From positions 24,535 to 88,534 of IMG/VR virus record IMGVR_UViG_3300037067_013676: DNA of 64,000 bases; one strand, given 5' to 3'. Position numbers and translations under genes: made by a program. The notes under the pieces were generated by a model, which worked only from the letters and a program-made list of their open reading frames with translations, made no database searches and was not told where the DNA came from. This DNA comes from a virus (Duplodnaviria > Caudoviricetes). Shown piece by piece: positions 1,794 to 24,020 of the stretch (within the stretch, counting starts at the first letter, position 1; each line of letters starts with the position of its first letter).

Positions 1794-2571
1794 AAATAGA
1801 AGAATAGAAAAAATTTGCCCAATCTGTTCTCATAGTTTTACATCATATATAAATAGAAATAGAATTTATTGTAATAATAAATGTTATTTTAAGTGGTTAA
1901 AATTACATCCAAATAAAGGCGCAAAGGGGCATACTTATGTTATGAAAGATGAACATAAACTTAAGATTTCAAAAGCATTGAAAGGTAAAAAAAGAATATT
2001 TAATCATAAACCAGACTGCCCATGTTGTATATGTAAAGCTAAAAGAGGTGAAACTAAAGGAAAAAATGCTAATAATTGGAAAGGAGATAAAGCACTAAGA
2101 AGACAAAAATACTATTGTATAGAACCTAACTGTAAAAACGAAATATCTTATGAAAATTTTAAAAACGGTAATAAAAGATGTAAACCATGCTCTAAAAGTG
2201 GAAATAGAAATTCTTTTTTTAATAAAAAACACAGCAAAGAACAAAAAGAAAAGTGGAGTTTAAATCGTAAATTAGAGTTAAATGCTCATTGGTTAAATGG
2301 TAAATCGTTTGAAGTTTATCCTTTAGGTTGGAACAAAACATTTAAAGAACAAATTCGTTATAGAGATGGTTATAAGTGTCAATTATGTGGTAAAAATCAA
2401 TTAGAAAATGGAAGAAAACTTCACGTACATCATATTGATTATGATAAAAAGAACTTAGATGTAAATAATTTGATAAGTTTATGCACAACTTGCCACACCA
2501 AAACCAACTTTAATAGAAAATATTGGAAAGAATATTTTAATAAATTATGGAAAAGGGAAAAGGTAATATAA
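1786..2571 (+). CDS. free-standing HNH homing endonuclease (family A)
   Basis: CQLCG...LHVHHIDYDKKN...NLISLCTTCH; N-terminal Cys-rich and NUMOD3-like modules; GTG at 1786 after GGAG. Confidence 0.85.
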   Translation: MSRNRRIEKICPICSHSFTSYINRNRIYCNNKCYFKWLKLHPNKGAKGHTYVMKDEHKLKISKALKGKKRIFNHKPDCPCCICKAKRGETKGKNANNWKGDKALRRQKYYCIEPNCKNEISYENFKNGNKRCKPCSKSGNRNSFFNKKHSKEQKEKWSLNRKLELNAHWLNGKSFEVYPLGWNKTFKEQIRYRDGYKCQLCGKNQLENGRKLHVHHIDYDKKNLDVNNLISLCTTCHTKTNFNRKYWKEYFNKLWKREKVI

Positions 2572-3203
2572 TTTTAGTTGGGGGTGGTAGTAGTGTTAGT
2601 GATGGTATTAAATTAGGACTGTGGGATAAAATTAAAAATACTAAGTCGGATATATGGTCAATTAATTTTGCATTTTTAACGATTCCATATCAGATTCAAA
2701 GGGAGATTTGGGTGGATATAAGCTTCTTTAAGAACAATATAGAAGCTATTCAGAAACTATATTCACAAGGTGTTTCTTGCCACGCTAAAAAACATCAATT
2801 TTATAGAAATATACCAGAAATCAATCTTTACGAAACTACCAGAAATCCACAAGAAATGGATAAGAAGTTATATATTGGTAGAATGGGGTTAAGTGGATTT
2901 TTTGCATTGCATTTAGCAGTTAAAGAAGAGTCAGATAATATATTTTTGCTTGGTTACGATTTCTCCGCAATAAATGGAAAAACCCATTACTATCAAGATA
3001 CTCATAAAGTTCAATCTACTGGAATAGGGCATCCAGAGTTATATTTGAAAGGTGATAAACCTAAAGACGAAGTGAAAGACTGGGAAAACTTTTGCTCTCC
3101 AGATATAAAATCTAAGATATATAATGTTAGTCCACAGAGTGCTATTGAATGTTTTTCTAAGATTACATATGAAGAGTTCTTTAATAAATTGGAGGAAAAA
3201 TGA
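2547..3203 (+). CDS. Maf/DUF115 (MptE-like) putative glycosyltransferase
   Basis: IILVGGGSS, WSINFAF, GLSGFFALHLA...IFLLGYDFS, NVSPQSAIECF pattern of the DUF115/CstII-like Rossmann fold. Confidence 0.65.
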   Translation: MEKGKGNIILVGGGSSVSDGIKLGLWDKIKNTKSDIWSINFAFLTIPYQIQREIWVDISFFKNNIEAIQKLYSQGVSCHAKKHQFYRNIPEINLYETTRNPQEMDKKLYIGRMGLSGFFALHLAVKEESDNIFLLGYDFSAINGKTHYYQDTHKVQSTGIGHPELYLKGDKPKDEVKDWENFCSPDIKSKIYNVSPQSAIECFSKITYEEFFNKLEEK

Positions 3204-3385
3204 AATTTGAAATAGATACACAAAGAACCGTAGAATATAATTATATTAGTATTTCTTTGACAAAAAATGATATTTCTGATTTACTTAAATTTGGTGAAAT
3301 TCGTCAATTTACTGAAGGTATGGAAAAATTCGTTAAAAATAATATAATAATAAAATTAGTTGAAAATAATAAAATAAATGAATAA
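3200..3385 (+). CDS. hypothetical protein
   Basis: 61-aa ORF overlapping both neighbours, with SD GGAGG upstream. Confidence 0.6.
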   Translation: MKFEIDTQRTVEYNYISISLTKNDISDLLKFGEIRQFTEGMEKFVKNNIIIKLVENNKINE

Positions 3386-4055
3386 ACCTGAAATTTCAAT
3401 CCTCTTGCCATCTCTAAGACCAGAACTTCTAAAAAGAAGTATTCAAGAGTTTGCTGATACTAATTCTAATGTAGACTATCAAATTGTGGTGGTTAGTCCT
3501 TTTAAAGTTCAATCACCTAAAGTTAAATGGATATTTGAAGGAGAACCAAGAGGTAGTGTTTGGGCAACTAATACTGCTTATACTTATTCAGAAGGTAAAT
3601 ATGCAGTATATTTTAGTGATGATGTAAGCCCAACCAAAGATTGCCTCAAGAATATGTTATCTTTTATGAAAGATAAAGAAACTCCATTTATTGGTGCTTT
3701 TAAGATGCTTACACCAAATAATGCCCAGATCGGCCCCTTTGGTTGTTATGAAAAACTTTATGCCTGCTACGGATGTTTGAGTGAAGAAACTTGTGCCTTA
3801 TTGGAAGGAGTATTTTATCATAAGTTTCTATATAGTTGGTGTGATATTGATTTAGCTATGAGATGTTATTCTAAAGGTGGTAAGATAGAAATTTGCCAAG
3901 ATGCTTGTGTAATACCAAGACAAGTAGAGGATGAAATTTATAAAAATCATAGACAAACATTTAATCAAGATTTTAATACTTTTTGTGATTTGTGGCATCC
4001 AACGTATGGTGGTAATTTACCAAGAGAAATTGGGGCAATAAATCATAAACTATAA
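3378..4055 (+). CDS. GT-A fold (GT2-like) glycosyltransferase
   Basis: ISILLPSLRPE, GKYAVYFSDDV (DD motif), WCDIDLAMR. Confidence 0.8.
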   Translation: MNKPEISILLPSLRPELLKRSIQEFADTNSNVDYQIVVVSPFKVQSPKVKWIFEGEPRGSVWATNTAYTYSEGKYAVYFSDDVSPTKDCLKNMLSFMKDKETPFIGAFKMLTPNNAQIGPFGCYEKLYACYGCLSEETCALLEGVFYHKFLYSWCDIDLAMRCYSKGGKIEICQDACVIPRQVEDEIYKNHRQTFNQDFNTFCDLWHPTYGGNLPREIGAINHKL

Positions 4056-4772
4056 ATGCTTTTACACATTATAATTCCAACACATTTTAGGCATCAAAAA
4101 TTAATGAACTGCCTTGGTTCGATTGAGCAAGCCAGAACACTTTTAGACTGCTATTCTTATGTTTTTGTCTATTATAGTGATAAAGAAGAATTTGAGAAAG
4201 ATTCAATAGGTTTAATTAATTATAAAAACATATTACCTAAACTTTTAGAAAAACCCTACTTCGCTTCTGAGTTTTGGAATGATCATATCAAATCATATAA
4301 TGCAGATATATACATTTATCTTAATGATGATATTGTCTTAGAAATGAATGCGTTAAAAAGAGTAGTAAATATAATGAATGAGAAGTTTAATGATTTAGAT
4401 GGGGTTGTGGCGATAACGCAAGAAAATATTCCTGAAAACCAAGCTTGCCCAACAGCTTTTGGTGCAATAGGAACTAAATTTACAGATAGATTCCCAGATA
4501 GAAAGGTTTTCTGTGAAGATTATGAACGACTATATTTAGATAGTGAACTCGGTGAATATGCTAAAAGTCAGGGGAAATTATTTCATAGTTTAGATAAAAG
4601 CATGGCCCCCCTACTAACACACTTTCATCCTGGATTTTTCCCTAATATGAAAGATTCCACACATGATGATGTTAGAACGCATTTAAGAAAAGATAAAATT
4701 ACTAATAATAGAAGAAAATCTAAAAACCTTCTTTGGGGAAGGGATTTTACATTAATAAATGCTAAAAATTAA
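4056..4772 (+). CDS. GT2-like glycosyltransferase
   Basis: IIIPTHFR..KLMNCLGSI, YIYLNDDIV, YLDSEL, HFHP. Confidence 0.75.
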   Translation: MLLHIIIPTHFRHQKLMNCLGSIEQARTLLDCYSYVFVYYSDKEEFEKDSIGLINYKNILPKLLEKPYFASEFWNDHIKSYNADIYIYLNDDIVLEMNALKRVVNIMNEKFNDLDGVVAITQENIPENQACPTAFGAIGTKFTDRFPDRKVFCEDYERLYLDSELGEYAKSQGKLFHSLDKSMAPLLTHFHPGFFPNMKDSTHDDVRTHLRKDKITNNRRKSKNLLWGRDFTLINAKN

Positions 4773-5487
4773 TCTATTAGTCCCAACAAGAAGTAGACCA
4801 AAATATCTTAAAGAATTGTTTCTTAATTTAGCATATACTATTCCTTCTTTCCGTTCAAATCACATAGAATTATTTTTAAAAATAGACGAAGATGATATAG
4901 AAACAAAAAAAGCTATTTCAATTTTAGAAAGAAATGAATATCCATTTAATTGGCATTATATTTCTAATCAAAAAAGCGATTTCTTAAATAGAGATTATTA
5001 TAACAATTTAAGTAGTATTGTTGCCGAAGGACTTTTGTGGGGAATTGCCGATGATGTTAGATTTTTTACTGATGATTGGTATAAATCATTAACAAATAAG
5101 GTAGAAGAATACTTAAAAGATAAACCAGATAGAATTGCTTATATATCAGTAAATGAAGAAGGAAGCACAGCTAAACATCCTTGTTTCCCCTTAATTACTA
5201 AAGAAGCTTTTCAAGTATTAGGCGAATATCACTGTTCAGAACTATTATCTTGGGGAAGTGATAGAATATTATGGGAGATATATAGTGGAATTGGGCGAAC
5301 CCTACATATACCAGAAATAAGTATTAAGCATTTAAGTTATCATGATGGTTCAGCACCTTTTGATGAAACAGCTAAAAGTATGAAAGAGAGATTCTTTAGA
5401 AATCCAAATGCACATAATCTTATTAGTGAAACTAAAGTTCCCCAACAAATAGAGAAATTAAAAAAATATATTGAGGAGTTTAAATAA
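4759..5487 (+). CDS. GT2-like glycosyltransferase
   Basis: LLVPTRSRP, LWGIADDVRF, CFPLI, WGSDRIL, IKHLSY. Confidence 0.75.
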   Translation: MLKINLLVPTRSRPKYLKELFLNLAYTIPSFRSNHIELFLKIDEDDIETKKAISILERNEYPFNWHYISNQKSDFLNRDYYNNLSSIVAEGLLWGIADDVRFFTDDWYKSLTNKVEEYLKDKPDRIAYISVNEEGSTAKHPCFPLITKEAFQVLGEYHCSELLSWGSDRILWEIYSGIGRTLHIPEISIKHLSYHDGSAPFDETAKSMKERFFRNPNAHNLISETKVPQQIEKLKKYIEEFK

Positions 5488-6614
5488 TGTGTTTAACTAA
5501 TGAATGGTCAGAAAAGAATATTTACAACAGCTTTAATTCTTTCGCTAAGGGGCTAACCTATTACGAATATTATGAAAGTATAAACAATTGGCGATTAGGT
5601 AAAATTAAAACTCCGAGAAGTCCTGTGGAAGTTTCCCTTGATCCGATTCATGCATGTAATTTGAAATGTTCCTGGTGCAATGCCTCTCGTTATTTAAAAG
5701 AAGGATTAGAAAATAGACGTATGAGTGATGAACATTTAATGAAGTTAATTACTTTTTTAGCTAAGTGGGGGGTTCGTGGTACATGTTGGGGAGGTGGCGG
5801 TGAAAGTTTACTCCACTCAAAAATGCAAGATGGTTTAGAGTTGGCATATTCTCTAGGTCTTGAAAATAGCATAGCTACAAACGGAACACTTTTCAATTCT
5901 AATTTAATAAATACTGCAATTAAAACCTGTAAATGGATTGGAATGTCAATAGACGCCGCTACTAAAGAAACATACTTTGAATCTAGAAAAATAGATTTAT
6001 TTGATAAAGCAATTTCTAATTTACAAGAATTATCAGAAAGAAGCAAATCTACTAACTCACAAGTAGATATAGCATATAAATTTTTAATCTTTAAAGAAAA
6101 TCAACATGAAATATATAAAGCTTGCGAATTAGCCAAAAAAATTGGAGTAAAAACATTTCACTGTCGACCAGCTTCTTACACTCACCAAGGGATGGAATTA
6201 AAATTAGATAATCCCTACGATATGAATTTAATAGAAGAAGAATTTGAAAAATGTAGAGAACTTGAAGATAAAAGTTTTAACGTGTTTTTGATTAGACATA
6301 AATTTAATCCTGATTTTTCAGCAAAAAGAGATTTTAGTCAATGTTGGGCGGGACCATTATGTATTCAAATATGTGCAGATAATAATGTATATAATTGCCC
6401 TGATACTCGTCATTTAGAAAGTTTTAAATTAGGAGAACATTATCCAAATCCAGAAAAAATATTAGAATTTTGGGGCAGTAAAAAACATTATAATATTGTA
6501 TTTAATGAAGCTTGTAAAATATGTAACTGGAGATGCACTTTTGGATACTATGCAAAACAATTTCAAGATTTGTTCATTGATAATAACGACCCACTATTCA
6601 GGAACTTTGTATAA
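5487..6614 (+). CDS. radical SAM protein with SPASM/twitch domain
   Basis: CNLKCSWC (CX3CX2C), WGGGGESLL, IATNGT, SIDAA; C-terminal CWAG...VYNC...CKICNWRC. Confidence 0.9.
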   Translation: MCLTNEWSEKNIYNSFNSFAKGLTYYEYYESINNWRLGKIKTPRSPVEVSLDPIHACNLKCSWCNASRYLKEGLENRRMSDEHLMKLITFLAKWGVRGTCWGGGGESLLHSKMQDGLELAYSLGLENSIATNGTLFNSNLINTAIKTCKWIGMSIDAATKETYFESRKIDLFDKAISNLQELSERSKSTNSQVDIAYKFLIFKENQHEIYKACELAKKIGVKTFHCRPASYTHQGMELKLDNPYDMNLIEEEFEKCRELEDKSFNVFLIRHKFNPDFSAKRDFSQCWAGPLCIQICADNNVYNCPDTRHLESFKLGEHYPNPEKILEFWGSKKHYNIVFNEACKICNWRCTFGYYAKQFQDLFIDNNDPLFRNFV

Positions 6615-6641
6615 AAATATGGAACAAGAAAGAAGAATTTA

Positions 6642-7265
6642 ATGGAAAAATCAACTAATAAAGTTGGCAAATATAAAAGAACAGAAAAACATCTTGAAAA
6701 TTTAAGAAAATATGCTTTTAAAAAAGGTATGATTCCTTGGAATAAAGGTTTAACTACAAAAACAGATGAAAGAGTTAAAAAATATGGGGAGAAATCTGGC
6801 AATACTAGAAAAGGTAAATTGGTTGGAATTTTTAGTCCTAATCATGGTAGAAAACACACAGAAGAAGAAATAATAAAAATGAAAAACGCAGCAATTAAAG
6901 ATGGAAGAAAACCACCATCCAGAAAAGACTGTGAAAATATTATTTTTAATTTTAAAAATTTACCAAATAAACCAGAAAAAGTACTTATTAATTTATTAAA
7001 TACTATTTTACCAAACGAATATAAATACATTGGAAACTGTAAATTATGGATTGAAGATTTTAATCCAGATTTTATAAACTGCAATGGGCAAAAGAAAATT
7101 ATAGAATTATTTGGTGATTACTGGCATAGAAATACTCAAGAAAGAGACAAAAATCGTTTAGAAACATATGCTAAATATGGATACAATACCTTAGTTATAT
7201 GGGAACATGAGTTAAAAGATTTACATAATGTGAGAAATAAAATATTAGAATGGAGTAAATTATAA
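6642..7265 (+). CDS. NUMOD3 + Vsr/DUF559-type homing endonuclease (family C)
   Basis: PWNKGLT and GRKHTEE NUMOD3 motifs; NKPEK...FNPDF...IIELFGDYWH...LVIWE. Confidence 0.8.
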   Translation: MEKSTNKVGKYKRTEKHLENLRKYAFKKGMIPWNKGLTTKTDERVKKYGEKSGNTRKGKLVGIFSPNHGRKHTEEEIIKMKNAAIKDGRKPPSRKDCENIIFNFKNLPNKPEKVLINLLNTILPNEYKYIGNCKLWIEDFNPDFINCNGQKKIIELFGDYWHRNTQERDKNRLETYAKYGYNTLVIWEHELKDLHNVRNKILEWSKL

Positions 7266-7642
7266 TGGAAAGAGACCCTGGCGATATTTTGGATCGAGGT
7301 TCTATTGCTAAACTAAAGCATGAAAGAATTAGAAATCCTGAAAATGATAAAGAATGGATTGCTTTTGAAAAAGAGTTAAAAATACTTATTAAAAAATATC
7401 CTAATCTTTTTATAAATGATTTGTTTGAACTATTATATAGTATTAATTCATTTATTTGGGAAAAAGAATCGGATATGAGACAAGGTAAATTAGATGGAAT
7501 TCTTTACGAAGTTGGTATTAGAGCTATAGAAATTCGTAAACTTAATAATTTTAGAATATCAATAAAAAATCTTATAAATAAGTTAACTGAAAGTGGATTT
7601 ATTGACATAAAACATAATCATCTTAGTGAAGGAACTAAATAA
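7265..7642 (+). CDS. DUF6165-like helical protein
   Basis: PGDILDR..I.KLKHERI...INSFIWEKESDMR...LNNFR..IKNLIN resembles DUF6165 proteins, recognised from memory. Confidence 0.5.
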   Translation: MERDPGDILDRGSIAKLKHERIRNPENDKEWIAFEKELKILIKKYPNLFINDLFELLYSINSFIWEKESDMRQGKLDGILYEVGIRAIEIRKLNNFRISIKNLINKLTESGFIDIKHNHLSEGTK

Positions 7643-9900
7643 TGAATAAAGTTTGTGTAATTAAGCCCAACGGAAATTCACAATATTGCCAAGACTTGCA
7701 AGAATACAAGTCAGTGGAGGTTCCTATCTGGCAGTTAGTTTTAGCTTCCCACTATAATACAGATTTACTTATAGATGGAGAAGTTAACAATCTGTCCAAT
7801 CAACAAATAGTAGATAAAGCAATTAACGAGTTTAAGGCTAAAAAAGTAGTTATCATTGCAACCGGAAATCATCCTAGCTCTTTTATACAGCAGCGTGGAG
7901 AAATGATTAAACTTAGTTGTATGTTTGAGAAGTATAAAGATGTTGAAATAATAACTCACAGTAAATTACCAGTAAATCCTTGTCAATATAAAGTTAATTG
8001 GGATTTGATAGATTTTAATAAGTACAGGGCGAGTAATTGGCATTGTGTAGATGAACAAACTGAAATTCTTACAGATCAAGGATGGAAGTTCTTTAAAGAT
8101 TTAGATAAAACAGAAAAAGTAGCTACATTAAACATAAATAAAAATTGTGTTGAATATCAAAAACCAAACAAATACTATAACTATGATTATGATGGAGAAA
8201 TGTATAGTTATAATGGAAGATTTGTAGATATGTTAGTAACATTAAACCATAAGTTATTAGTTAGTGGATATAATAATTATAAATGGAAATTAATAGAAGC
8301 TAATAAGACAAAAAAATGTATTCGTTTTAATAGATGTTTTAATTACGATAAAAAAGATGTTAATGATTTTATATTTCCTCAAATAGATACATATAGACTT
8401 AGAAGAAATGTTAAAAGTTTGTTAATGGATGATTTTTTATTATTTCTTGGAATTTATTTATCTGAAGGAAGTACATATAGAAATAATGTTGCCATTTCTC
8501 AATTAAATAAAGGAAAAAGAAAAGTAATTAAACAATGGATAGAAAAATTAAAATACCGTGTTACAGACAATAAAAAAACACCTTTTTTATCAATAAGTAA
8601 TAAACAGTTAGTTCTCTATTTTAAACAGTTTGGTAAAGCAAAAGATAAGTTTATCCCAAGAGAATTATTAAATTCTTTAAGTAAAAGACAATGTAGAATA
8701 TTATTAAAAGCATTAATGTTTGGAGATGGTTCTTGGGATAAAGAAAAAATAGAAAAAAGTGGATACTATTGTTCAACATCCAAACAACTATCTAACGATG
8801 TACAAGAATTAGCATTAAAAGGTGGCTATATGGCTTCTTTTGTAGAAACAAAATGGCATCTTAATAAGGGTCATTTTGGAAAAAATGTAGTTTACAGTGT
8901 AAATATTTGTGATACTAGAAAATATCCAGCAGTTGATGTTAGAACAAGAAAAACAGAAATTATAAATTACAAAGGAAAAGTTTATTGTGTAGAAGTAGAT
9001 AATCATATTATATATATACGTAGAAATGGCAAGTGTCATTGGACTGGAAATAGTATGACAAACAATTTAAATCCTTCCCCATATGGGGTTAATTATAGTT
9101 CAGTTTCATGCCCACATAAATGTAATTACTGCGTAGTTAAACGCTTTTACGGAAATAAGTATATTGAAAGAGATTTAGAAGATATAACGAGAGATTTTGA
9201 TGAATTAGCAAAAAGAAATGTAATTAATATTAAAATGATGGACGAATTATTTGTATCTAAACCAGAAAGAGTTAAAAAGATATGTCAAGCTATTATAGAT
9301 AAAGGATATAATTTTAATATTTGGGCTTACGCTAGAATAGATATTATGAATGATGAAATCCTAAAAATAATGAGAAAAGCTGGTATTAGGTGGCTGGCAT
9401 TCGGCGTAGAATCAGGAAACGATAAGATTAGAAAAGATGTTCTCAAAGGTAATTTTACCAAAAATAAAATTAAAGAAGTCATAAAAATGACTAAAGATAA
9501 TGATATTTGTGTTATAGGTAATTTTATGTTTGGTTTTTGGGAAGATAATAAAGATACTATGCAAGAAACTTTAGATTTAGCAATAGAGTTAAATTGCGAG
9601 TATGTAAACTTTTATTGCTTGACCGCATTTCCCGAAACAAATTTTCATAATGATTTGTTGTCTAAGGGAGTTCCACTGCCAACGAGCTGGGAACAATATG
9701 CCCAAATAAGCGAACAATTCAAAGCACTCCCAACCAAATACTTAAAAGCTGAAGAAGTATTACGTTTTAGGGACAGAGCTTTCCAAATTTATTTCAGAGA
9801 AAGTACATATATAGATATGATTGAATCTAAATTTGGGGCAAAAACAATAAAACATATAGATACAATGATACATAAAAGAATAGGAAGGTTGTACTGCTAA
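7642..9900 (+). CDS. cobalamin-binding-type radical SAM enzyme interrupted by an intein
   Basis: SCPHKCNYC after the intein; MDELF, WAYARID, FGVESGND, GNFMFG; 416 aa after removing the 336-aa intein. Confidence 0.88.
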   Translation: MNKVCVIKPNGNSQYCQDLQEYKSVEVPIWQLVLASHYNTDLLIDGEVNNLSNQQIVDKAINEFKAKKVVIIATGNHPSSFIQQRGEMIKLSCMFEKYKDVEIITHSKLPVNPCQYKVNWDLIDFNKYRASNWHCVDEQTEILTDQGWKFFKDLDKTEKVATLNINKNCVEYQKPNKYYNYDYDGEMYSYNGRFVDMLVTLNHKLLVSGYNNYKWKLIEANKTKKCIRFNRCFNYDKKDVNDFIFPQIDTYRLRRNVKSLLMDDFLLFLGIYLSEGSTYRNNVAISQLNKGKRKVIKQWIEKLKYRVTDNKKTPFLSISNKQLVLYFKQFGKAKDKFIPRELLNSLSKRQCRILLKALMFGDGSWDKEKIEKSGYYCSTSKQLSNDVQELALKGGYMASFVETKWHLNKGHFGKNVVYSVNICDTRKYPAVDVRTRKTEIINYKGKVYCVEVDNHIIYIRRNGKCHWTGNSMTNNLNPSPYGVNYSSVSCPHKCNYCVVKRFYGNKYIERDLEDITRDFDELAKRNVINIKMMDELFVSKPERVKKICQAIIDKGYNFNIWAYARIDIMNDEILKIMRKAGIRWLAFGVESGNDKIRKDVLKGNFTKNKIKEVIKMTKDNDICVIGNFMFGFWEDNKDTMQETLDLAIELNCEYVNFYCLTAFPETNFHNDLLSKGVPLPTSWEQYAQISEQFKALPTKYLKAEEVLRFRDRAFQIYFRESTYIDMIESKFGAKTIKHIDTMIHKRIGRLYC
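8044..9051 (+). mobile_element. intein with LAGLIDADG homing endonuclease (336 aa)
   Basis: Starts CVDEQTEILTDQGW (block A); VTLNH (block B TxxH); FLGIYLSEGS and LKALMFGDGS LAGLIDADG motifs; ends KVYCVEVDNH...HWTGN followed by Ser +1. Confidence 0.93.
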
Positions 9901-13823: not shown

Positions 13824-13824
13824 A

Positions 13825-15362: not shown

Positions 15363-15492
15363 AAAAGAAAAAGATAAAATACTTTGTTTCGAATGTGATG
15401 GCGAAGGAACTATAACTAAAGAAGATGGTTCTATAGTGCCGTGTATAGAATGCAAAGGAACTGGTTATCTGACAATAATTAAAACTAAATAA
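15346..15492 (+). CDS. 48-aa DnaJ-type zinc-finger miniprotein (not in ORF track)
   Basis: SD AAGGAG then MVPIIKKEKDKILCFECDGEGTITKEDGSIVPCIECKGTGYLTIIKTK*; two CxxCxGxG motifs; TAATG overlap with the next gene. Confidence 0.8.
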   Translation: MVPIIKKEKDKILCFECDGEGTITKEDGSIVPCIECKGTGYLTIIKTK

Positions 15493-17689: not shown

Positions 17690-18468
17690 GAAAAAAATAT
17701 AAATGTATAGAAAAAGATTGTAAAAATGAAGTTTCTGGCAAAAATAGAAGATGCAGACATCACGCACTAATATTGAGACATAAGTTAACAAATTTTGCTT
17801 TAAAACATGGCAGATATTCCAAAAATTTTAAACCAATTTACTATTGTATAGATGGATGTGGAGCAAAAGTAAGTGAAGAAGGAAATAGATGTTATTCTTG
17901 TTCTAAACTTGGTAACAAAAATCCTCAATTTATAGATGGCAGAACAAATAAAGTATATTATTGTTTAGTAAAAGGATGTAATACTATTGTAAAATCATAT
18001 GGGAAAAAATGTAGGCATCATGCTCAATCAGGGAGAAAAGTTTCAGATAAAACTAAGAAAAAACAAAGTATATCTATGAAAAAAGCTGGTTTTACTCATA
18101 ATAAAGAAATTTGTTCTTGTTTTATTTGCAAAGCTTATAGAGGTGAAACTAAAGGTGAAAACGCAAGCAATTGGATGGATGGAAGAAGTTTTGAAGACTA
18201 TCCAAAAGAATTTAATGCAGAACTTAGAGATAAAATAAGAAAACGTGATGATTATATTTGTCAAAATTGTGGTATGACAGAAGAAGAACATATAATAGTT
18301 TTGGGTTATAATTTGACTATTCATCATATAGATTATAATAAAAATAATAATAAAGAAAGTAATTTAATTACTACCTGTAGTAGTTGTAATTGTAGAGCCA
18401 ATTATAATAGAAATTATTGGAAAGAATATTATCAAAAGAAAATGGAGAAAAAATGCATACAACAATAA
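17686..18468 (+). CDS. free-standing HNH homing endonuclease (family A)
   Basis: RDDYICQNCG...LTIHHIDYNK...NLITTCSSCN; Cys-rich N-terminal repeats. Confidence 0.85.
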   Translation: MRKKYKCIEKDCKNEVSGKNRRCRHHALILRHKLTNFALKHGRYSKNFKPIYYCIDGCGAKVSEEGNRCYSCSKLGNKNPQFIDGRTNKVYYCLVKGCNTIVKSYGKKCRHHAQSGRKVSDKTKKKQSISMKKAGFTHNKEICSCFICKAYRGETKGENASNWMDGRSFEDYPKEFNAELRDKIRKRDDYICQNCGMTEEEHIIVLGYNLTIHHIDYNKNNNKESNLITTCSSCNCRANYNRNYWKEYYQKKMEKKCIQQ

Positions 18469-19292
18469 TTGCAGAAGCAGGTATAAATCATCTTGGGAGT
18501 ATAGATTTATGCATGCAGTTAATTGATGGAGCTGTTTTTGGTGGAGCAGATATTTTTAAATTACAAAAAAGAGATATTAATTCTACTTATACTAAAGAAG
18601 AGTTGAATAAATATAGAGAATCTCCCTTTGGATTGTTGAATCGTGATTTAAAAAAACAATTAGAATTTAATGAAAAAGAATATGATATTATTAAAAAATA
18701 CTGCGATTCTAAAAATATTGAATTAATGGTTTCGGCTTGGGACTTGGCAAGTCAAAATTTTCTCAAAAAATATAATTGCAAGTATAACAAAGTAGCTTCT
18801 GCTAGATTAGGTCATAAAAAACTATTGGAAGAAATAGCCAAAGAAGGTAAATATACGTTCATTTCTACTGGTATGGCAACGATTGACGAAATTGGGGAAG
18901 CTATAAAAATATTTAATAATTTCGGATGCCCATTTGAGTTAATGGCTTGTAATAGTAGCTATCCTTGCCCAGATGAAGATTTGAATTTATTAACTATTAA
19001 AACTTTAAGAGATACTTTTGGGTGTAAAGTTGGGTTCAGTAGTCATTCGCCTGGGATTATTCCTTGTGTATTAGCTGTGGCTTTAGGTGCTACTTCTATA
19101 GAAGCCCATCTGACGACGAATAGAACTCTTTATGGTAGTGACCAAGCTTCTTCAATTGAAATTCACGGATTTAAAAGAATGGTTGATTATGTAAGGGATG
19201 CTGAACTGCAATTGGGCGATGGTATTAAAGTAATAACTGAAACAGAGAAAAAGATAAGAGAAAAACTCTACAGGACTGAAGATATACAATGA
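18453..19292 (+). CDS. neuB: N-acetylneuraminate/nonulosonate synthase family (NeuB/SpsE), lacking C-terminal SAF domain
   Basis: IIAEAGINHLG, GADIFKLQ, YNKVASA, ISTGM, CNSSYP, VGFSSH, IEAHLT; ATG 18453 after GGAG; 279 aa. Confidence 0.9.
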   Translation: MHTTIIAEAGINHLGSIDLCMQLIDGAVFGGADIFKLQKRDINSTYTKEELNKYRESPFGLLNRDLKKQLEFNEKEYDIIKKYCDSKNIELMVSAWDLASQNFLKKYNCKYNKVASARLGHKKLLEEIAKEGKYTFISTGMATIDEIGEAIKIFNNFGCPFELMACNSSYPCPDEDLNLLTIKTLRDTFGCKVGFSSHSPGIIPCVLAVALGATSIEAHLTTNRTLYGSDQASSIEIHGFKRMVDYVRDAELQLGDGIKVITETEKKIREKLYRTEDIQ

Positions 19293-19957
19293 ATGATAAA
19301 ATAGTGATTTGTGGAGCCAGGGGTGGTAGTTCGAGGGTTCTCAACAAAAATATTAGAAAATTAGGAGAAATTCCTCTTATTGAGTATTCTCTATTTACTG
19401 GTGAATTATTAGGATTACCTATTTATGTTTCTTCCGATTCCGATAAAATACTCAAAATTGTAAAAACTCATGGATCTTTAGTAAACATTATTAAAAGACC
19501 TAGTATATTAGCTTCAAATACATCAACTGATATAGATTGGATAAAACATTTATTAAGTATTTATTATGAGCAAAATAGTTCTTATCCTAAACAATTAATA
19601 TTTTTAAGACCAACTACCCCACTTAGGGAAATTTCTATAGTTAAAGAAGCAATTAAAAAATTTAACGGTTCAAAATATACTTCATTAAGAAGTGTAGAAG
19701 AACTAAAAGAAAGTATCTATAAAACATATTTTATAAAAAACTGTATTCTTGAACCATTTAACAAAGATAATAGTAATGTGGCGAACCAAACCTTGCCAAT
19801 TTCCTATGGTGCAAACGGATATATAGATATACTACTTACAGAGCAAATATTAAACTCAAATGATATATATGGTGATAAAATAATGCCATTTATAACTCCA
19901 AGAACAATAGAAATAGATGATGAATTTGATTTTAAACTTGCGGAGAAATTAATATGA
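19289..19957 (+). CDS. neuA: acylneuraminate (CMP-nonulosonate) cytidylyltransferase
   Basis: ARGGSSRVLNKNI, VSSDSD, LRPTTPLR, NGYI, IEIDDEFDF. Confidence 0.9.
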   Translation: MNDKIVICGARGGSSRVLNKNIRKLGEIPLIEYSLFTGELLGLPIYVSSDSDKILKIVKTHGSLVNIIKRPSILASNTSTDIDWIKHLLSIYYEQNSSYPKQLIFLRPTTPLREISIVKEAIKKFNGSKYTSLRSVEELKESIYKTYFIKNCILEPFNKDNSNVANQTLPISYGANGYIDILLTEQILNSNDIYGDKIMPFITPRTIEIDDEFDFKLAEKLI

Positions 19958-21189
19958 AATATGCTAAAGTAGTAACTAAACTACCTCACAAAGCAGATTT
20001 AAAGCTTCTCAGCGATATTAACAAGTATGAAGCTAATAGTATGCAAGGACAAATACCTCTTATCTGGGATAGTGCTAAAGGGTTTTTAGTAAAAGATAGA
20101 CACGGTAATCAATTTTTGGATTTTACATCTGGAATAGCTGTTGCAAACTGTGGTCATGGTAATAATGATATAATGAATGCTATAAGAAGCAAAATAAATA
20201 GACCTTTAGTACATTCTTATACATTTGGAACTGAAATACGATATAAATTCTTAAAAGAATTAGTAGATATATATTACCCAAAAGGAAAAGCATTTTTAGT
20301 AAGTGCCGGAACTGAAGCTACTGAAGTTGCTGTAAAATTAATGCGTAGATATGGTATATCTCATAAAAAAGAAATGATAGGAATAGTGTCTTTTAAAGGA
20401 GCAATGCATGGAAGAACATCTATATCTGAAAATTTAAAGGGAGATAGTTTTCAGACTTCAAAAGATGGGTGGGCTAATAGAGATAATTCCATACTAAACA
20501 TTAATCCTCCTTTTGATAGTGAAAAATTTAACTATAAACATATTCCCGATATTAAAAATATTTGTGGGATTATTATAGAAAGTTATCAAGGTTGGTCTGC
20601 TAGATTTTATAATAAGAAATATATGCAGGATTTAGTAAAATATTGTAAAGAAAATAATATTTTAGTTTGTTTTGATGAAATACAGGGAGGATTTGGAAGA
20701 ACTGGTAAAATGTGGGCTTGGGAACATTACAATATACCACAACCAGATTTAATATGTTTTGGTAAAGGTGTTAGTTCAAGTGTTCCTTTATCTGGAGTGT
20801 TAGGTAGAAAAGATATACTAGATATACTAGAAGTAGGCGGCATGTCATCTACCCATTCAGCAAATCCTATTAGTTGTGCCGCTGGATTGTCTAATTTACA
20901 ATATCTTAAAAAATACAATTTAATAAAAAATTCAAGAATACTTGGTAAAAAAATGATAGATTTTCTTAGAGGTTTGGGTTTAGAAATCAATGGTAATGGG
21001 TTGTTGTGTGCAATTATTACTAAAACTGACGAAGAAGCTGATAGAATAGTTATAGAATGCTTTAAGAAAGGTTTATTACTAATAAGAACACATAAGAACT
21101 CAATTAAGCTCGCACCACCGTTAATTTTAACAGAGGATGCTCTCTTTGAAGGACTAAATATCATAAAAGAGGTTATTAAATCACAATGA
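19954..21189 (+). CDS. class III PLP-dependent aminotransferase
   Basis: FLDFTSGIAV, GTEATE, GAMHGRT, FDEIQGGFGRTG, DLICFGKG (PLP Lys), STHSANP, LAPPL. Confidence 0.92.
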   Translation: MKYAKVVTKLPHKADLKLLSDINKYEANSMQGQIPLIWDSAKGFLVKDRHGNQFLDFTSGIAVANCGHGNNDIMNAIRSKINRPLVHSYTFGTEIRYKFLKELVDIYYPKGKAFLVSAGTEATEVAVKLMRRYGISHKKEMIGIVSFKGAMHGRTSISENLKGDSFQTSKDGWANRDNSILNINPPFDSEKFNYKHIPDIKNICGIIIESYQGWSARFYNKKYMQDLVKYCKENNILVCFDEIQGGFGRTGKMWAWEHYNIPQPDLICFGKGVSSSVPLSGVLGRKDILDILEVGGMSSTHSANPISCAAGLSNLQYLKKYNLIKNSRILGKKMIDFLRGLGLEINGNGLLCAIITKTDEEADRIVIECFKKGLLLIRTHKNSIKLAPPLILTEDALFEGLNIIKEVIKSQ

Positions 21190-21590
21190 GTATATGTAAT
21201 ATTAGACACGTGTGTTTGTGTGTGAGTAATCTACAAAAAGCCGACTACTTTTATAGAAAAGTATTAGGTTTACATTATGTAAATAGTGAAGTAGAAGAAG
21301 GGGATTTCATTAAATCTCTTTTAGGATTAGATTCTCTAACTTGGGTCAAACTGGCTACTGATAGTGGAGATATATTAGAATTATATTGGTTGCCCACAAA
21401 AACCAATGATTCTTTTAATCATATAGCGTTTACTGTAGAAAATGTGCAATATATGAGAAATAAACTAAAAGAGTTTGAAATTGAGTGTTCCGAAATTAAA
21501 TTAGACAAAAGTGGAACTCATAAAGTAATGTTTTGTAGAGACCCCGAAAAAAATATGTTAGAAATTGTTGAGGAGATTAAAAATGTATAA
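21186..21590 (+). CDS. VOC/glyoxalase family protein
   Basis: IRHVCLCVSNL...FY..VLGL, ILELY, NHIAFTVEN, FCRDPE.N.LEIVE. Confidence 0.88.
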   Translation: MSICNIRHVCLCVSNLQKADYFYRKVLGLHYVNSEVEEGDFIKSLLGLDSLTWVKLATDSGDILELYWLPTKTNDSFNHIAFTVENVQYMRNKLKEFEIECSEIKLDKSGTHKVMFCRDPEKNMLEIVEEIKNV

Positions 21591-22386
21591 TTTAGCGGGT
21601 TTAAGTGTAGCATCGGTTGAACTTTCGAGTTTTTGTAATAAGGTTCCAGGGTGCTTCATGTGTGGGAGACGCAAGCTTGAAAAAGAACATCCAGAACTTT
21701 GCCAATGGGGAAATATGGATATTGGATTAGTAGATTTAATTGCAAAACAACTACCTTCAAATATTATAGTGAGTCTCCATGGAAATGGGGATCCTTTGTG
21801 CTATCCTAGGCTAAAAGAAGCACTACATAGATTTAAGCGTCAAATAAGAGTATTTAATACAAATGCAGTGGCTTTATTAGAAAAAGCAGATATTATAATA
21901 AATAACCTTGAATCTTTAACTATTTCAGTAATAGAAAACGATACTTTAGGAGATAAACAGTATGAAGATGTTAAAAAGTTTTTAGAAATAAAAGGTAACA
22001 AAAAACCAATTATGACTTATAGATTACTTGGAAATGTAGAAAATGCCAAAAGATGGTATGAATTACCAGGCAAAGTAGCTACAAGAATACTACACAATCC
22101 ACTGGGCAGTTTTGACTACACTAAAAAAGTAACGTTGCCTGAACACCAAATTTGTATGGACATGTTAACCCATTGTTTTATAGATAGATACGGCGATTTT
22201 TACCCTTGTATTCGGTACAATCCTTATAAAATAAACAAACTCGGTAATATTAAAGAAAATACTTTAGAAGAGTTGTGGAATAGCCCCAAAAGACTAAATC
22301 TACTTAAAGAACATGTAAAAGGAAACCGCAATTGTAGTAAACTTTGTAGTAAATGTGATTTTTATGGGATCCCACGTGGAGATTAA
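21583..22386 (+). CDS. radical SAM/SPASM protein with CX5CX2C motif
   Basis: VELSSFCNKVPGCFMC, LHGNGDPL, FNTNA; CMDML...GDFYPC...GNIKENTLEELWNS...CSKLCSKC. Confidence 0.82.
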   Translation: MYNLAGLSVASVELSSFCNKVPGCFMCGRRKLEKEHPELCQWGNMDIGLVDLIAKQLPSNIIVSLHGNGDPLCYPRLKEALHRFKRQIRVFNTNAVALLEKADIIINNLESLTISVIENDTLGDKQYEDVKKFLEIKGNKKPIMTYRLLGNVENAKRWYELPGKVATRILHNPLGSFDYTKKVTLPEHQICMDMLTHCFIDRYGDFYPCIRYNPYKINKLGNIKENTLEELWNSPKRLNLLKEHVKGNRNCSKLCSKCDFYGIPRGD

Positions 22387-22555
22387 CTATTGTGATTTAA
22401 GTTGTAAATATGCTTCTTTTCCAGATAAGTTATGTGATGGAAGTATGACTTGTAGGACTTTTGTAGGTATATTTTGTAAGAAAGATAAGAAGATTGTTTA
22501 TAAGAATGCTAAATGTAGTAAATTTAAGCCTAGGAGCCTCAAAATTGAAAGATAG
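22376..22555 (+). CDS. small Cys-rich hypothetical protein
   Basis: Likely GTG at 22376; six Cys in 59 aa. Confidence 0.55.
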   Translation: MEINYCDLSCKYASFPDKLCDGSMTCRTFVGIFCKKDKKIVYKNAKCSKFKPRSLKIER

Positions 22556-22658
22556 TATAAAAAGAGTAGATTTACCCACTCTACTTAAAATAATCAAACA
22601 CAGGGTATCACAAACGCAAATTTACCCTATTTGTGAGACTACATGGGAGACAATATGA
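22545..22658 (+). CDS. 37-aa hypothetical protein (not in ORF track)
   Basis: AGGAG at 22532-22536, TTG 8 nt later; MKDSIKRVDLPTLLKIIKHRVSQTQIYPICETTWETI*; ATGA overlap with the next gene. Confidence 0.6.
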   Translation: MKDSIKRVDLPTLLKIIKHRVSQTQIYPICETTWETI

Positions 22659-23404
22659 GTAATAATTGTAAATTTTCACTTTCAGCTTCAGCTATACGAC
22701 CTCAAATTTGGCAACAGTTGTTAGATTCTTTAAGAAGTAATGATTTGAAATATGAAGTAGTTTTGGCTGGAAATGTTAGACCACAATTTGATATATCTAA
22801 ATATCCAGAATTAAAATACATATATTCACCAACAAAGCCGAGTCAGTGTTATCAGATATGTTTTAATGAAAGTGTTGGTGAGTTAGTATCTTGGGGAAGT
22901 GATGACTCCACCTACCCACCTAACGCTTTAGATGAAATGTATGAGTTTTTTAAGTCTTTTAACAATAGAAAATTGGTGGCGGCGTTTAGAACTGTTGAGG
23001 ATGGTAGAGATATTACTGAATGGCATAGATTGAGGGGGCGAGATCCAAATGCTCCAAGAATGGCTCCCTTTGGAGTAATGGATAGGGAGTTTTTTAATGA
23101 ACTGGGTGGATACGATCGTAGATTTATTTGTGGGCAATCTGAAAATGATGTAGTAATGAGAGTGTATGAAGCTGGCGGGGAACTACAAATATCTAAAGTT
23201 CCAGTAATAGTAAATCATCAAAAAGCTCATGATAGCAGTGGAACTGTGTTTAGAAGTGGATATTTCCATGAAGATCGTAGGGTATTAGAATCGGCATGGT
23301 TTAATCCAGATAAAACTATTTCTAATAAACGATTAGTTCCTTTTGAATCTTTTGATAAAACTGATATTTTAACAAAAACTCAATCGCAACGTGGGAAGTG
23401 GTAA
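22655..23404 (+). CDS. GT2-like glycosyltransferase (paralogue of 13825..14634)
   Basis: SASAIRPQ, YIYSPTKPSQC, SWGSDDS, LGGYDRRFICGQSEND. Confidence 0.8.
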   Translation: MSNNCKFSLSASAIRPQIWQQLLDSLRSNDLKYEVVLAGNVRPQFDISKYPELKYIYSPTKPSQCYQICFNESVGELVSWGSDDSTYPPNALDEMYEFFKSFNNRKLVAAFRTVEDGRDITEWHRLRGRDPNAPRMAPFGVMDREFFNELGGYDRRFICGQSENDVVMRVYEAGGELQISKVPVIVNHQKAHDSSGTVFRSGYFHEDRRVLESAWFNPDKTISNKRLVPFESFDKTDILTKTQSQRGKW

Positions 23405-23405
23405 A

Positions 23406-24020
23406 ATGAAACCTTGGATTGTCAGTTGTTTTTATACCGCCCAAACGCCCTACAGAGACATTTTATATTCACAGTTAATCCCAAGTCTTGATAAATTAAA
23501 TATTAAATATAACATAGAAGAAATAGAAAATAAAGGTTCGTGGTTAAAAAATGTTGCCCAAAAACCTCTAACTATACTTCATACTTTAGAAAAGTATCCA
23601 GAATATAATTGCGTGTCAATTGATTCTGATGCGGAAGTGTTAAGTTATCCTAAAATATTTGATGAAATTGGAGAAGAATTTGATATAGGTTTACATGAGT
23701 TAGACTGGGATAGTTGGTATCAAAATAACTCGCATGTTAAAGAAATATTGAGTGGTACTGGTTGGTTTAACAATACTCAAAAAGTAAAAGATTTAGTTAA
23801 AGAGTGGTATGATAGAGCCATAAAAGACTATAAATGGGAGCAAAAGGTGCTTTCGGGTCTGATTTTAGAAAAAAAAGATATTAAAATATTTGAATTGCCA
23901 ATTGAATATGTATGGTTAGAATCACTTCCAGATGGTTCTCCACCAAAAATAAAAGGAACTCCAATCATTCTTCACAAACAAGCATCTCGCCAAATGAAAC
24001 GTAAAATTAGATTATTATAA
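23406..24020 (+). CDS. GT-A nucleotide-diphospho-sugar transferase
   Basis: SCFYT..TPY, GSW.KNVAQKP, SIDSDAE (DxD), SGT.WF, WEQK, ILHKQAS. Confidence 0.72.
   Translation: MKPWIVSCFYTAQTPYRDILYSQLIPSLDKLNIKYNIEEIENKGSWLKNVAQKPLTILHTLEKYPEYNCVSIDSDAEVLSYPKIFDEIGEEFDIGLHELDWDSWYQNNSHVKEILSGTGWFNNTQKVKDLVKEWYDRAIKDYKWEQKVLSGLILEKKDIKIFELPIEYVWLESLPDGSPPKIKGTPIILHKQASRQMKRKIRLL

Follow-up and report, generated by a model that had tools for sequence, protein, structure and literature searches.

What might a tailed phage do with a block of sugar-active genes that fills about a fifth of its genome? The question is raised by a stretch of 64,000 nucleotides, called the window here, that covers bases 24535-88534 of an 88.5-kb IMG/VR virus record (IMGVR_UViG_3300037067_013676, G000) with an estimated completeness of 81%. 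Between positions 2547 and 24020 of the window, a tightly packed gene cluster lies on the + strand inside the tailed-phage genome. Pfam and NCBIfam matches and predicted folds place in it ten transferases, five radical S-adenosylmethionine (SAM) enzymes, a split pair of thiamine pyrophosphate (TPP) E1-like proteins, a SAM methyltransferase, a short NeuB, a cytidine monophosphate (CMP) transferase, a class III aminotransferase, and a VOC protein. The analysis supports a soluble, phage-borne system of many enzymes for making and tailoring an ulosonic (sialic-acid-like) sugar, activated with CMP, and for building a glycan.

There are 25 + strand open reading frames (ORFs) of at least 125 aa in the cluster, mostly overlapping or abutting, and three further small ORFs, two of which are conserved in relatives. 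An earlier annotation of this DNA (the original prediction) had listed these genes and counts, including eight GT-A/GT2 and two Maf-like transferases, and its inventory was reproduced. It had also described all of the proteins as soluble, and no membrane-helix-like segment was found in any cluster protein. Its statement that there is no flippase, polymerase, or polytopic GtrII-type transferase holds for both the contig and a complete relative (G001, described below). No ORF with at least four membrane-helix-like segments is present in either, and no initiating phosphoglycosyl transferase, flippase, polymerase, or ligase was found in either. Operon structure was taken from gene spacing only; promoter and terminator scans found sites no more frequent than in shuffled sequence.

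The block is an integral, conserved part of the phage genome. The same gene order is found in a 109-kb contig present in ENA and JGI data (L005/L006), a 108.7-kb JGI contig, and two Logan contigs (L010 and L011). Orthologues are mostly 44-88% identical, down to about 27% for a DUF6165-like protein, and these relatives come from five other samples. The IMG/VR copy of the 109-kb relative (G001, 109,385 bp) has a 127-bp terminal repeat, which indicates that this genome is complete. In G001 the cluster extends from the fibre genes up to the end of the genome and on into the exonuclease gene. The original prediction had suggested a search for syntenic clusters, and the order was found gene for gene in the relatives, the complete 109-kb genome included. 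It had also named assembly with a bacterial chromosome as an outcome that would speak against it. Bacterial contamination was rejected, since phage genes flank the block and it lies inside the terminally redundant 109-kb relative.

Some variation is seen among the relatives. A TylF/Methyltransf_24-type sugar O-methyltransferase that the window does not have is added in two of them, between the E1 alpha and B12-binding radical SAM genes in one (L010:7447-8094) and between the B12-binding radical SAM and E1 beta genes in the other (L011:8765-9487). Two distant phages, L061 and L068, carry a reduced cluster at the same place, behind their polymerase and exonuclease genes. It consists of a Maf-like gene, a Nucleotid_trans-type glycosyltransferase (GT), a SPASM enzyme, a family B GT, and an aminotransferase; L061 additionally has a methyltransferase, a VOC protein, a B12-binding radical SAM enzyme, a cytidylyltransferase, and NeuB. 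Parts of the cassette described below occur on about 20 other IMG/VR contigs, and relatives of the SPASM enzyme at 23 viral loci. About 35 ORFs of G001 (L082-L087, roughly 20-55 kb) are without a counterpart in the present contig; part of these is the missing fifth of its genome.

Among GenBank phages, a nucleotide search with the NeuB-aminotransferase segment gave no match. Protein searches of the same collection with the SPASM enzyme, with transferases 4056-4772 and 14628-15362, and with the ORF at the terminase position (60722-62341) also gave no match, and NeuB gave three weak matches only. Single-protein IMG/VR scans with 13053-13823 and the aminotransferase returned nothing useful.

The sugar-making core of the cluster is an ulosonate cassette at 15492-22386. 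Its genes are, in order:

15492..16838, + strand: B12-binding-domain radical SAM enzyme, first gene of the cassette (448 aa; PF02310 60 bits, PF04055 69.2 bits)
16835..17689, + strand: class I SAM methyltransferase (284 aa; PF13489 49.7 bits)
18417..19292, + strand: short NeuB-family ulosonic acid synthase without SAF domain (PF03102)
19289..19957, + strand: CMP-ulosonate synthetase, a cytidylyltransferase (222 aa; PF02348, CTP_transf_3, 39.7 bits)
19954..21189, + strand: class III (omega) aminotransferase (411 aa; PF00202 247.5 bits)
21186..21590, + strand: VOC/glyoxalase-fold protein (134 aa; PF00903 45.5 bits)
21565..22386, + strand: small radical SAM/SPASM enzyme, BtrN-sized (273 aa; PF13186 45.4 bits)

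NeuB matched PF03102 at 214.3 bits (cut-off 22.1) over model positions 1-241 of 241. The protein has 279-291 aa; its true start is probably near 18453, which would give 279 aa as in orthologues. When it is aligned with NeuB of Neisseria meningitidis (1xuu), the phage motifs SSHS/EAH fall on SDHT/ERH and AEAGINH on CEIGINH, and the KLQ and NKV lysines are matched by the lysines of KHQ and YKI. In the meningococcal enzyme, the His pair binds the metal, and the Glu and Lys bind phosphoenolpyruvate (PEP) or the substrate. The catalytic positions are kept. The C-terminal SAF (antifreeze-like) domain is not present in the phage NeuB. The NeuB_NnaB equivalog scored 227.3 bits against a cut-off of 399.65, with a match that stops at model position 274 of 329, and the PseI equivalog scored 171.5 bits against 340.25.

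For the cytidylyltransferase, the PseF model scored 79.7 bits over its full length, under the cut-off. The nearest solved relatives of the aminotransferase are acetylornithine, ornithine, and gamma-aminobutyric acid (GABA) aminotransferases. The closest solved relative of the B12-domain enzyme is AprD4, and the protein is 50-55% identical to the product of a gene beside NeuB in many bacterial loci. Cysteines of the CxxxCxxC motif are invariant in an alignment of the SPASM enzyme (A3), whose sole PDB relative is BtrN, a weak match (E 2.8e-4 over the C-terminal 70 residues). Enzymes for Neu, Pse, or Leg precursors were also looked for. No Epimerase_2, Polysacc_synt_2, DegT, or hexapeptide-transferase match was found on any cluster ORF.

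The cassette is also found in bacteria and archaea. The SPASM enzyme has more than 250 homologues, and a scan of species-representative genomes gave 46 bacterial or archaeal loci with relatives of it. These belong to Omnitrophota, Saccharibacteria, Syntrophorhabdaceae, Desulfobacterales (including Desulfobacter curvatus DSM 3379), Planctomycetota, Nitrospirota, Elusimicrobiota, Chloroflexota, and two archaea (metagenome-assembled genomes). The phage-like order of NeuB, cytidylyltransferase, class III aminotransferase, VOC protein, and SPASM enzyme is present in 22 of the 46 loci (type 1), all 22 of which hold the aminotransferase and VOC protein together. Of the type 1 loci, 17 also hold one or two methyltransferases, of the type seen in the phage, 13 hold a B12-domain radical SAM enzyme, and in seven the gene for a SIS sugar-phosphate isomerase immediately precedes NeuB. 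In 14 more loci, a class IV aminotransferase replaces the class III enzyme and there is no VOC protein.

The bacterial cassettes have DegT aminotransferases, NAD epimerases/dehydratases, nucleoside triphosphate (NTP) transferases, and heptose genes as neighbours. By these annotations they lie in surface-polysaccharide loci, and the DegT, epimerase, and NTP-transferase flanks indicate that the cassette product is a glycan building block. Phage NeuB, SPASM, and B12-domain enzymes are about 50% identical to their bacterial counterparts, among which NeuB is likewise of the short form. The other two radical SAM enzymes and the E1 beta-like half were not found in the bacterial cassette loci, and the E1 alpha-like half had a weak match in only three of them. 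One bacterial glycan locus (L009) holds full-length E1 alpha and beta genes. The sugar product of the cassette appears to be uncharacterised in bacteria. Two contigs labelled Saccharibacteria (L013 and L015, G+C 0.33) are among the best genome-collection matches to the phage SPASM enzyme (50-56%). These contigs might be pieces of phage that were placed in a bacterial bin; no further genes of this phage lineage were found on them.

The cluster encodes ten transferases, eight of the GT-A/GT2 type and two with the sialyltransferase fold of CstII and Maf:

2547..3203, + strand: transferase 1, sialyltransferase/Maf (MptE-like) fold, candidate CMP-ulosonate transferase (218 aa)
3378..4055, + strand: GT2 glycosyltransferase (225 aa; PF00535 28.5 bits, cut-off 23.3)
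4056..4772, + strand: GT2 glycosyltransferase (238 aa; no Pfam match of its own)
4759..5487, + strand: GT-A/GT2 transferase, paralogue family A (242 aa)
9900..10574, + strand: GT-A/GT2 transferase, family A (224 aa)
13053..13823, + strand: GT-A/GT2 transferase, family A (256 aa)
13825..14634, + strand: GT2-like transferase, family B (269 aa; Glyco_tranf_2_2 E 3.9e-4, below cut-off)
14628..15362, + strand: transferase 2, sialyltransferase (GT42/Maf) fold, candidate CMP-ulosonate transferase (244 aa)
22643..23404, + strand: GT2-like transferase, family B (253 aa; weak PF00535 match)
23391..24020, + strand: GT-A transferase of the Nucleotid_trans (PF03407) type (209 aa; PF03407 E 4.6e-3)

The sole transferase above a Pfam cut-off by itself is 3378-4055. 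It is distantly paralogous to 22643-23404 (BLAST), and its orthologues in L005, L010, and L011 are 57-72% identical. The others were assigned through their families. PF00535 is present in 27 of the 37 homologues of 4056-4772, whose family (369 representative clusters) has a profile matching TarP, TarS, chondroitin synthase, and PglI-like chains. Homologues of family A also carry PF00535. Within this family, 13053-13823 matches 4759-5487 over its full length (BLASTP E 1.5e-13) and 9900-10574 at E 1.5e-17; orthologues of the latter are 72-81% identical. An AlphaFold model of 13053-13823 (predicted local distance difference test, pLDDT, 93.5) has TarP, TarS, RmlT, chondroitin polymerase, and SpsA as nearest folds. 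The acidic motif of GT-A enzymes is invariant, as D101 D102 in alignment A4, which takes in the family A member 4759-5487, and as D91 D92 in alignment A2.

The two family B members are 36% identical (E 1e-44), and 22643-23404 has orthologues in L005 and L010 and relatives of 36-42% identity in L061 and L068. An orthologue of 23391-24020 on JGI contig 3300069122 has a confident precomputed PF03407 match, and those in L061 and L068 are 38-40% identical. No phage transferase had a close homologue in 48 bacterial loci that hold the cassette. Unlike the cassette, the transferases are phage-specific.

The fold of the two remaining transferases had to come from structure, since the PF01973 (Maf) hidden Markov model had no match at E <= 1 anywhere in the 88.5-kb genome. 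The Atlas model of 2547-3203 (predicted template modelling score, pTM, 0.86) has TM scores of 0.74-0.78 to clusters carrying PF01973 and WaaZ_KDO_III. This protein also matches PHROG 4603, "alpha-2,3-sialyltransferase", at E 1.3e-12, and its orthologues (43-48% identity) open the cluster in L061 and L068. The AlphaFold model of 14628-15362 has a pLDDT of 92.9. CstII and Cst-I take ranks 1-11 of its Foldseek search of the PDB (probability 0.99-1.00, TM about 0.5), followed by ST8SiaIII, Maf 5mu5, and MptE, and its neighbours in BFVD are MptE-like/DUF115 viral proteins. Maf proteins have roughly 600 residues with flanking domains. Where the original prediction had named two Maf/DUF115-like genes, the fold is thus upheld by Foldseek and the Atlas, and the PF01973 profile match and the architecture of about 600 aa are not found. 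No flagellin, the acceptor of Maf, was found in the contig.

The cluster also contains these enzymes outside the cassette, together with one small protein:

5487..6614, + strand: radical SAM enzyme (375 aa; PF04055 57.9 bits)
7265..7642, + strand: DUF6165-like small protein (125 aa; PF19662 23.7 bits, below the cut-off of 27)
7642..9900, + strand: radical SAM enzyme with a class-B-like core and a LAGLIDADG intein inside (752 aa; PF04055 64.7 bits)
10568..11146, + strand: TPP-binding E1 alpha-like half (192 aa; PF00676 66 bits)
11122..12555, + strand: B12-binding-domain radical SAM enzyme (477 aa; PF02310 49 bits, PF04055 54.4 bits)
12536..13066, + strand: E1 beta-like pyrimidine-binding half (176 aa; PF02779, Transket_pyr, 26.5 bits, cut-off 27)

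The best NCBIfam models for 5487-6614 (tungsten-cofactor maturase, prokaryotic viperin, AhbC/D, and NirJ) were all far below cut-off, and a PDB relative was not found by sequence. For 7642-9900, the best were HpnJ and PhpK, below cut-off; weak Intein_splicing and LAGLIDADG_3 matches were also seen. The pyruvate dehydrogenase E1 alpha match of 10568-11146 is likewise under its cut-off. A B12-binding domain and a radical SAM core, both above cut-offs, are present in 11122-12555 as well as in 15492-16838, and orthologues of the former are 75-88% identical. The DUF6165-like gene sits between two radical SAM genes. It has orthologues in L005, L010, and L011, and its Atlas neighbours are almost all viral.

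Four more genes of the cluster were identified, two of them endonuclease-like and two small:

6642..7265, + strand: DUF559 endonuclease-like gene (PF04480 27.9 bits)
15346..15492, + strand: zinc-finger-type (DnaJ-type) protein with two CxxCxGxG motifs (48 aa)
17686..18468, + strand: HNH homing-endonuclease-like gene (PF01844 26.5 bits)
22355..22555, + strand: cysteine-rich ORF with seven cysteines (66 aa)

The HNH gene, the intein, and probably the DUF559 gene are selfish insertions, since both endonuclease-like genes are missing in relatives and the intein is missing in two. The DUF559 gene has no orthologue at the same place in L005, L010, or L011 and probably lies outside the pathway. The HNH gene is a paralogue of 1771-2571 and is missing at the same place in L005 and L010. 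Orthologues of the intein-bearing enzyme are intein-less in L005 and L010 (414 aa) and intein-bearing in L011 (848 aa). Both this enzyme and the family B DNA polymerase (L003:16602-19694) carry LAGLIDADG inteins. The two paralogous HNH genes and the DUF559 gene, which lie among the pathway genes and have no counterpart at these places in relatives, invade the cluster heavily without disrupting it.

The zinc-finger-type gene is kept directly before the B12 radical SAM gene in all relatives seen. Its equivalents (46-54 aa) were found in L005, L010, and JGI contig 3300069122, and the L005 copy has a weak CHP02642 match. ORFs of 67-68 aa follow the SPASM gene at the place of 22355-22555 in L005 and the 3300069122 contig. 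This ORF could encode a small metal or iron-sulfur protein that serves the radical SAM enzymes.

The surroundings of the cluster are those of a tailed phage. Upstream on the + strand are an RNA ligase, a pair of N6/N4 DNA methyltransferases, a primase-polymerase/helicase, a RecA-like protein, an intein-bearing family B DNA polymerase, and a ribonucleotide reductase of class II. These are followed, ahead of the cluster, by a polymerase-exonuclease-like protein, a MazG-like pyrophosphatase, a dCMP deaminase, an exonuclease (114-995), and ThyX with a canonical RHR motif. From 24007 on, the - strand encodes fibre-like proteins, a tape measure protein, and more structural genes. Pfam and PHROG searches of the large structural ORFs found almost nothing besides the tape measure protein, and no tRNA genes were found. 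A 980-aa protein of the - strand (49202-52144) has 27% Ser+Thr and a local G+C of 0.39, against about 0.30. Its N-terminal part resembles a beta-helix, its C-terminal part is repetitive ("LLxxILS"), and three copies of a 10-residue repeat close the protein, which is possibly a fibre or decoration protein.

What the cluster makes can be proposed from the families to which its enzymes belong. The cassette would make a tailored 3-deoxy-2-ulosonic acid. The SAF-less NeuB would condense PEP and an aldose, which may be a sugar phosphate of the host, similar to the Kdn route. Such a substrate is suggested by the NeuB without SAF domain, by the lack of Neu/Pse/Leg precursor enzymes, and by the SIS gene of the bacterial versions. 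The BtrN-like radical SAM enzyme would oxidise a hydroxyl, the omega-aminotransferase would convert the resulting carbonyl to an amine, and the VOC protein may isomerise or epimerise. BtrN oxidises a sugar hydroxyl, and AprD4 is a sugar diol dehydratase. A BtrN-type relative next to an omega-type aminotransferase makes oxidation followed by transamination to an amino-ulosonate reasonable. With AprD4 nearest to the B12-domain enzyme, methylation and deoxygenation are both possible, so this enzyme and the SAM methyltransferase may add methyl groups or remove a hydroxyl. The cytidylyltransferase would produce the CMP donor.

Further sugars may be tailored, for example by C-methylation, deoxygenation, or addition of a two-carbon branch, by the split TPP E1 pair together with the remaining two or three radical SAM enzymes. 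The eight GT-A enzymes would extend a heteroglycan from host nucleoside diphosphate (NDP) sugars, and the two sialyltransferase-fold enzymes would add the ulosonate; the folds come from models and family profiles, and the acceptors are presumed. The original prediction had called the cap a nonulosonate. A CMP-activated ulosonic sugar stands, and its identity as a nonulosonate is uncertain, a Kdn-like or other 3-deoxy-ulosonic acid being equally possible with no SAF domain and no precursor enzymes. Cytoplasmic glycan synthesis by the phage itself, also proposed at first, agrees with a conserved soluble pathway with ten transferases. A phosphonate pathway was considered as well, prompted by the split TPP enzyme, the cytidylyltransferase, and the B12 radical SAM enzymes; it was dropped when a search for PEP mutase gave no match.

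What the glycan is attached to is a guess, and virion proteins are placed first with a probability somewhat short of even. The acceptors would be the phage's own fibre, tail, or head proteins, glycosylated before lysis, and the coat might protect the particle or tune adhesion. No integrase was found in a search of the contig, so there is no sign of lysogeny, where host conversion would pay, and virion glycosylation agrees with a lifestyle that appears lytic. It also agrees with machinery that is soluble and self-contained; a membrane partner is missing from both the contig and the complete relative. The cluster ends at 24020 against tail-fibre genes, both in the window and in G001, and its transferase genes thus adjoin virion genes, as in mycobacteriophage-type systems. 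There are also precedents of virus-encoded cytoplasmic virion glycosylation, in mycobacteriophages, chloroviruses, and giant viruses.

Several findings weigh against this proposal. All NCBIfam equivalog matches are below cut-off, and the product chemistry is read from distant family resemblance. The Maf-like proteins, at 218 and 244 aa, are without the flanking domains of Maf. The cluster shares the + strand with the replication and nucleotide-metabolism genes, and the structural genes are on the opposite strand. No link between the enzymes and any virion protein was found. The original prediction had pointed to Ser/Thr-rich virion proteins, a weak point: the fibre-like proteins have 18-27% Ser+Thr, and neither S/T-rich nor low-complexity acceptor tracts turned up in the virion proteins. 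The S/T-rich 980-aa protein has no counterpart in G001, which has the full cluster. Lastly, the structures closest to the GT2 enzymes belong to enzymes that have cell-wall polymers, not proteins, as substrates.

This last point leads to host envelope remodelling, a serious rival that is held to be somewhat less probable and ranks directly after virion proteins. Phage enzymes at the inner membrane face would act on host lipid-linked or polymer intermediates of O-antigen, capsule, teichoic acid, S-layer, or flagellin/pilin glycans, and a host initiating transferase and a flippase or ABC exporter would finish the work. The altered surface could block superinfection or save progeny from loss on cell debris. 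The original prediction had set the host surface aside, all proteins being soluble and no flippase being present. On these grounds the step is not supported, as the nearest GT2 structural neighbours, including the prophage enzyme TarP, are host-polymer enzymes. Most O-antigen and teichoic-acid transferases are soluble and use lipid-linked acceptors that are exported by the host. The ulosonate cassette is at home in bacterial surface-polysaccharide loci. The closest GT2 structures are TarP (prophage, wall teichoic acid), TarS, RmlT, and chondroitin polymerase, and CstII and WaaZ, neighbours of the sialyltransferase-fold proteins, act on lipo-oligosaccharide. Prophage genes that re-tailor a host-capsule nonulosonate are documented (PMC12053666), and pelagimyophage cassettes of GTs and radical SAM enzymes beside tail-fibre genes have been read in the same way (PMC7029224). 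However, the contig has no integrase, and membrane proteins, an initiating phosphoglycosyl transferase, a flippase, a polymerase, and a ligase are missing from both the contig and the complete relative. For a surface change in a lytic cycle, a sugar pathway of the phage's own and ten transferases would be a heavy outlay, and no phage transferase has a close homologue in the 48 bacterial cassette loci. The contig and the complete relative have no polytopic membrane protein, which excludes serotype conversion of the gtrABC type.

Hypermodification of DNA is very improbable. Here the glycan would sit on a phage DNA base, as in SP-15, YerA41, and Carin-5, and the radical SAM, TPP, and pyridoxal phosphate (PLP) enzymes would make the linker. 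The position of the cluster fits this: the genes for dCMP deaminase, pyrophosphatase, exonuclease, and ThyX lie directly before it on the same strand, in an order kept in L061 and L068. Oligosaccharide-modified thymidine with a sugar-enzyme/transferase gene block near the polymerase gene is documented, with the linker chemistry unsolved (PMC12686479), and thymidine hypermodification pathways include radical SAM and PLP enzymes (Lee et al. 2022, as cited in PMC12686479). On the other hand, characterised phage DNA glycosylation always starts from a ThyA-family or TET/JBP enzyme (PMC13326640; bioRxiv 10.1101/2023.12.21.572611). The original prediction had found no hydroxymethyl-base maker in the window, and this now extends to the whole 88.5-kb contig and the complete 109-kb G001, in which no ThyA-family hydroxymethylase/hydroxylase (PF00303) and no TET/JBP (PF12851) is present. 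The canonical ThyX and the dCMP deaminase indicate a normal dTMP supply, and two ordinary N6/N4 DNA methyltransferases are encoded. Several shotgun metagenomes yielded long contigs of this lineage, whereas Carin-5 DNA proved resistant to standard sequencing (PMC12686479). Nor was any GenBank phage matched in sequence, which speaks against this reading if the known hypermodified phages are in that collection. A variant, in which a radical SAM, TPP, or PLP enzyme makes the attachment point for an ulosonate-capped oligosaccharide after replication, without ThyA- or TET-type hydroxylation, is about as improbable. It would open a new way into DNA hypermodification and give the first DNA that bears an ulosonate.

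A free or lipid-bound small glycoconjugate, that is, a soluble, aminoglycoside-like or other specialised metabolite with no macromolecule decorated, comes last and is very improbable. In its favour, BtrN and AprD4, the only solved relatives of the SPASM and B12-domain enzymes, belong to aminoglycoside pathways, and the sugars of aminoglycosides are also tailored by aminotransferases of class III and by B12 radical SAM methylases. Against it, the NeuB, the CMP-transferase, and the two sialyltransferase-fold proteins indicate a glycoconjugate, the bacterial cassettes neighbour polysaccharide genes and not antibiotic clusters, and no cyclitol synthase, exporter, or resistance gene was seen.

If virion proteins are the target, this would be the first tailed phage with a sialic-acid-like coat, which would bear on particle stability, adhesion, and recognition. 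A host surface or DNA target would instead mean a new form of superinfection exclusion or of anti-restriction. The cassette itself points to an uncharacterised oxygen-independent route to an amino-ulosonic acid, in surface-glycan loci of many mostly anaerobic phyla and in many uncultured phages, and the cluster enzymes may offer new sugar chemistry.

Literature searches turned up no account of such an enzyme combination in a phage, and the known systems each share a part of it. Nonulosonate transfer of the Maf/CstII type, in Campylobacter and relatives, likewise combines a synthase of the NeuB family with a CMP-activating enzyme and with transferases that share the fold of those in the cluster. 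The phage cluster differs from these Pse/Leg/Neu systems in having no PseB/C/H/G, LegB/C/H/G, or NeuC, a NeuB without SAF domain, a class III and not a DegT aminotransferase, transferases of 218-244 aa that fail PF01973, and radical SAM enzymes. In SP-15, YerA41, and Carin-5 (PMC12686479), a sugar-enzyme/transferase block is likewise close to replication genes. Those phages, whose polymerases are of family A and carry a UDG-like domain, have sequencing-resistant DNA, whereas here no base-hydroxylating enzyme was found and the thymidylate supply is normal.

TarP of Staphylococcus aureus phages (PDB 6h1j) and EpaA/EpaB of Acinetobacter prophages, which re-tailor a capsule nonulosonate (PMC12053666), are also soluble phage enzymes that act on cytoplasmic wall or capsule glycan intermediates. 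They are one or two genes of temperate phages, in contrast to 25 genes, no integrase found, and a self-contained pathway here. Islands of marine T4-like cyanophages and pelagimyophages (PMC7029224) combine lipopolysaccharide-like transferases with radical SAM cassettes beside fibre genes, again in uncultured phages. The present cluster belongs to another lineage, with a family B polymerase and a tape-measure-bearing tail, and has a defined ulosonate cassette and a conserved rather than hypervariable gene order.

Mycobacteriophage transferases O-glycosylate their own capsid and tail proteins in the cytoplasm (Freeman et al. 2023, as cited in PMC12619734 and PMC12801897). Unlike this cluster, the mycobacteriophage cassettes have a few transferases, in some cases with a methyltransferase, and no sugar-biosynthesis pathway. 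The lack of GenBank-phage similarity for three cluster proteins (two transferases and the SPASM enzyme) argues against homology with the mycobacteriophage cassettes, but not against analogy.

Chloroviruses (PBCV-1) and giant viruses (Mimivirus, Megavirinae) possess virus-encoded cytoplasmic glycosylation machinery (PMC9614988). Like the phage cluster, it comprises the virus's own soluble GTs, methyltransferases, and rare-sugar pathways, in clusters of many kb that are independent of host secretion. Those are viruses of eukaryotes with genomes of 300 kb to more than 1 Mb, whereas the target here is a guess. We know of no radical SAM tailoring or NeuB/sialyltransferase-fold pair of this type in them. 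The tailed phages known so far carry one to a few glycosyltransferases. The complexity that the original prediction had called unusual for a phage is therefore that of a conserved 25-gene system, of giant-virus scale, in a phage of roughly 109 kb. Virus-encoded glycosylation is already known as a kind; what is new is its scale for a 109-kb phage, the radical-SAM-rich tailoring, and the ulosonate cassette.

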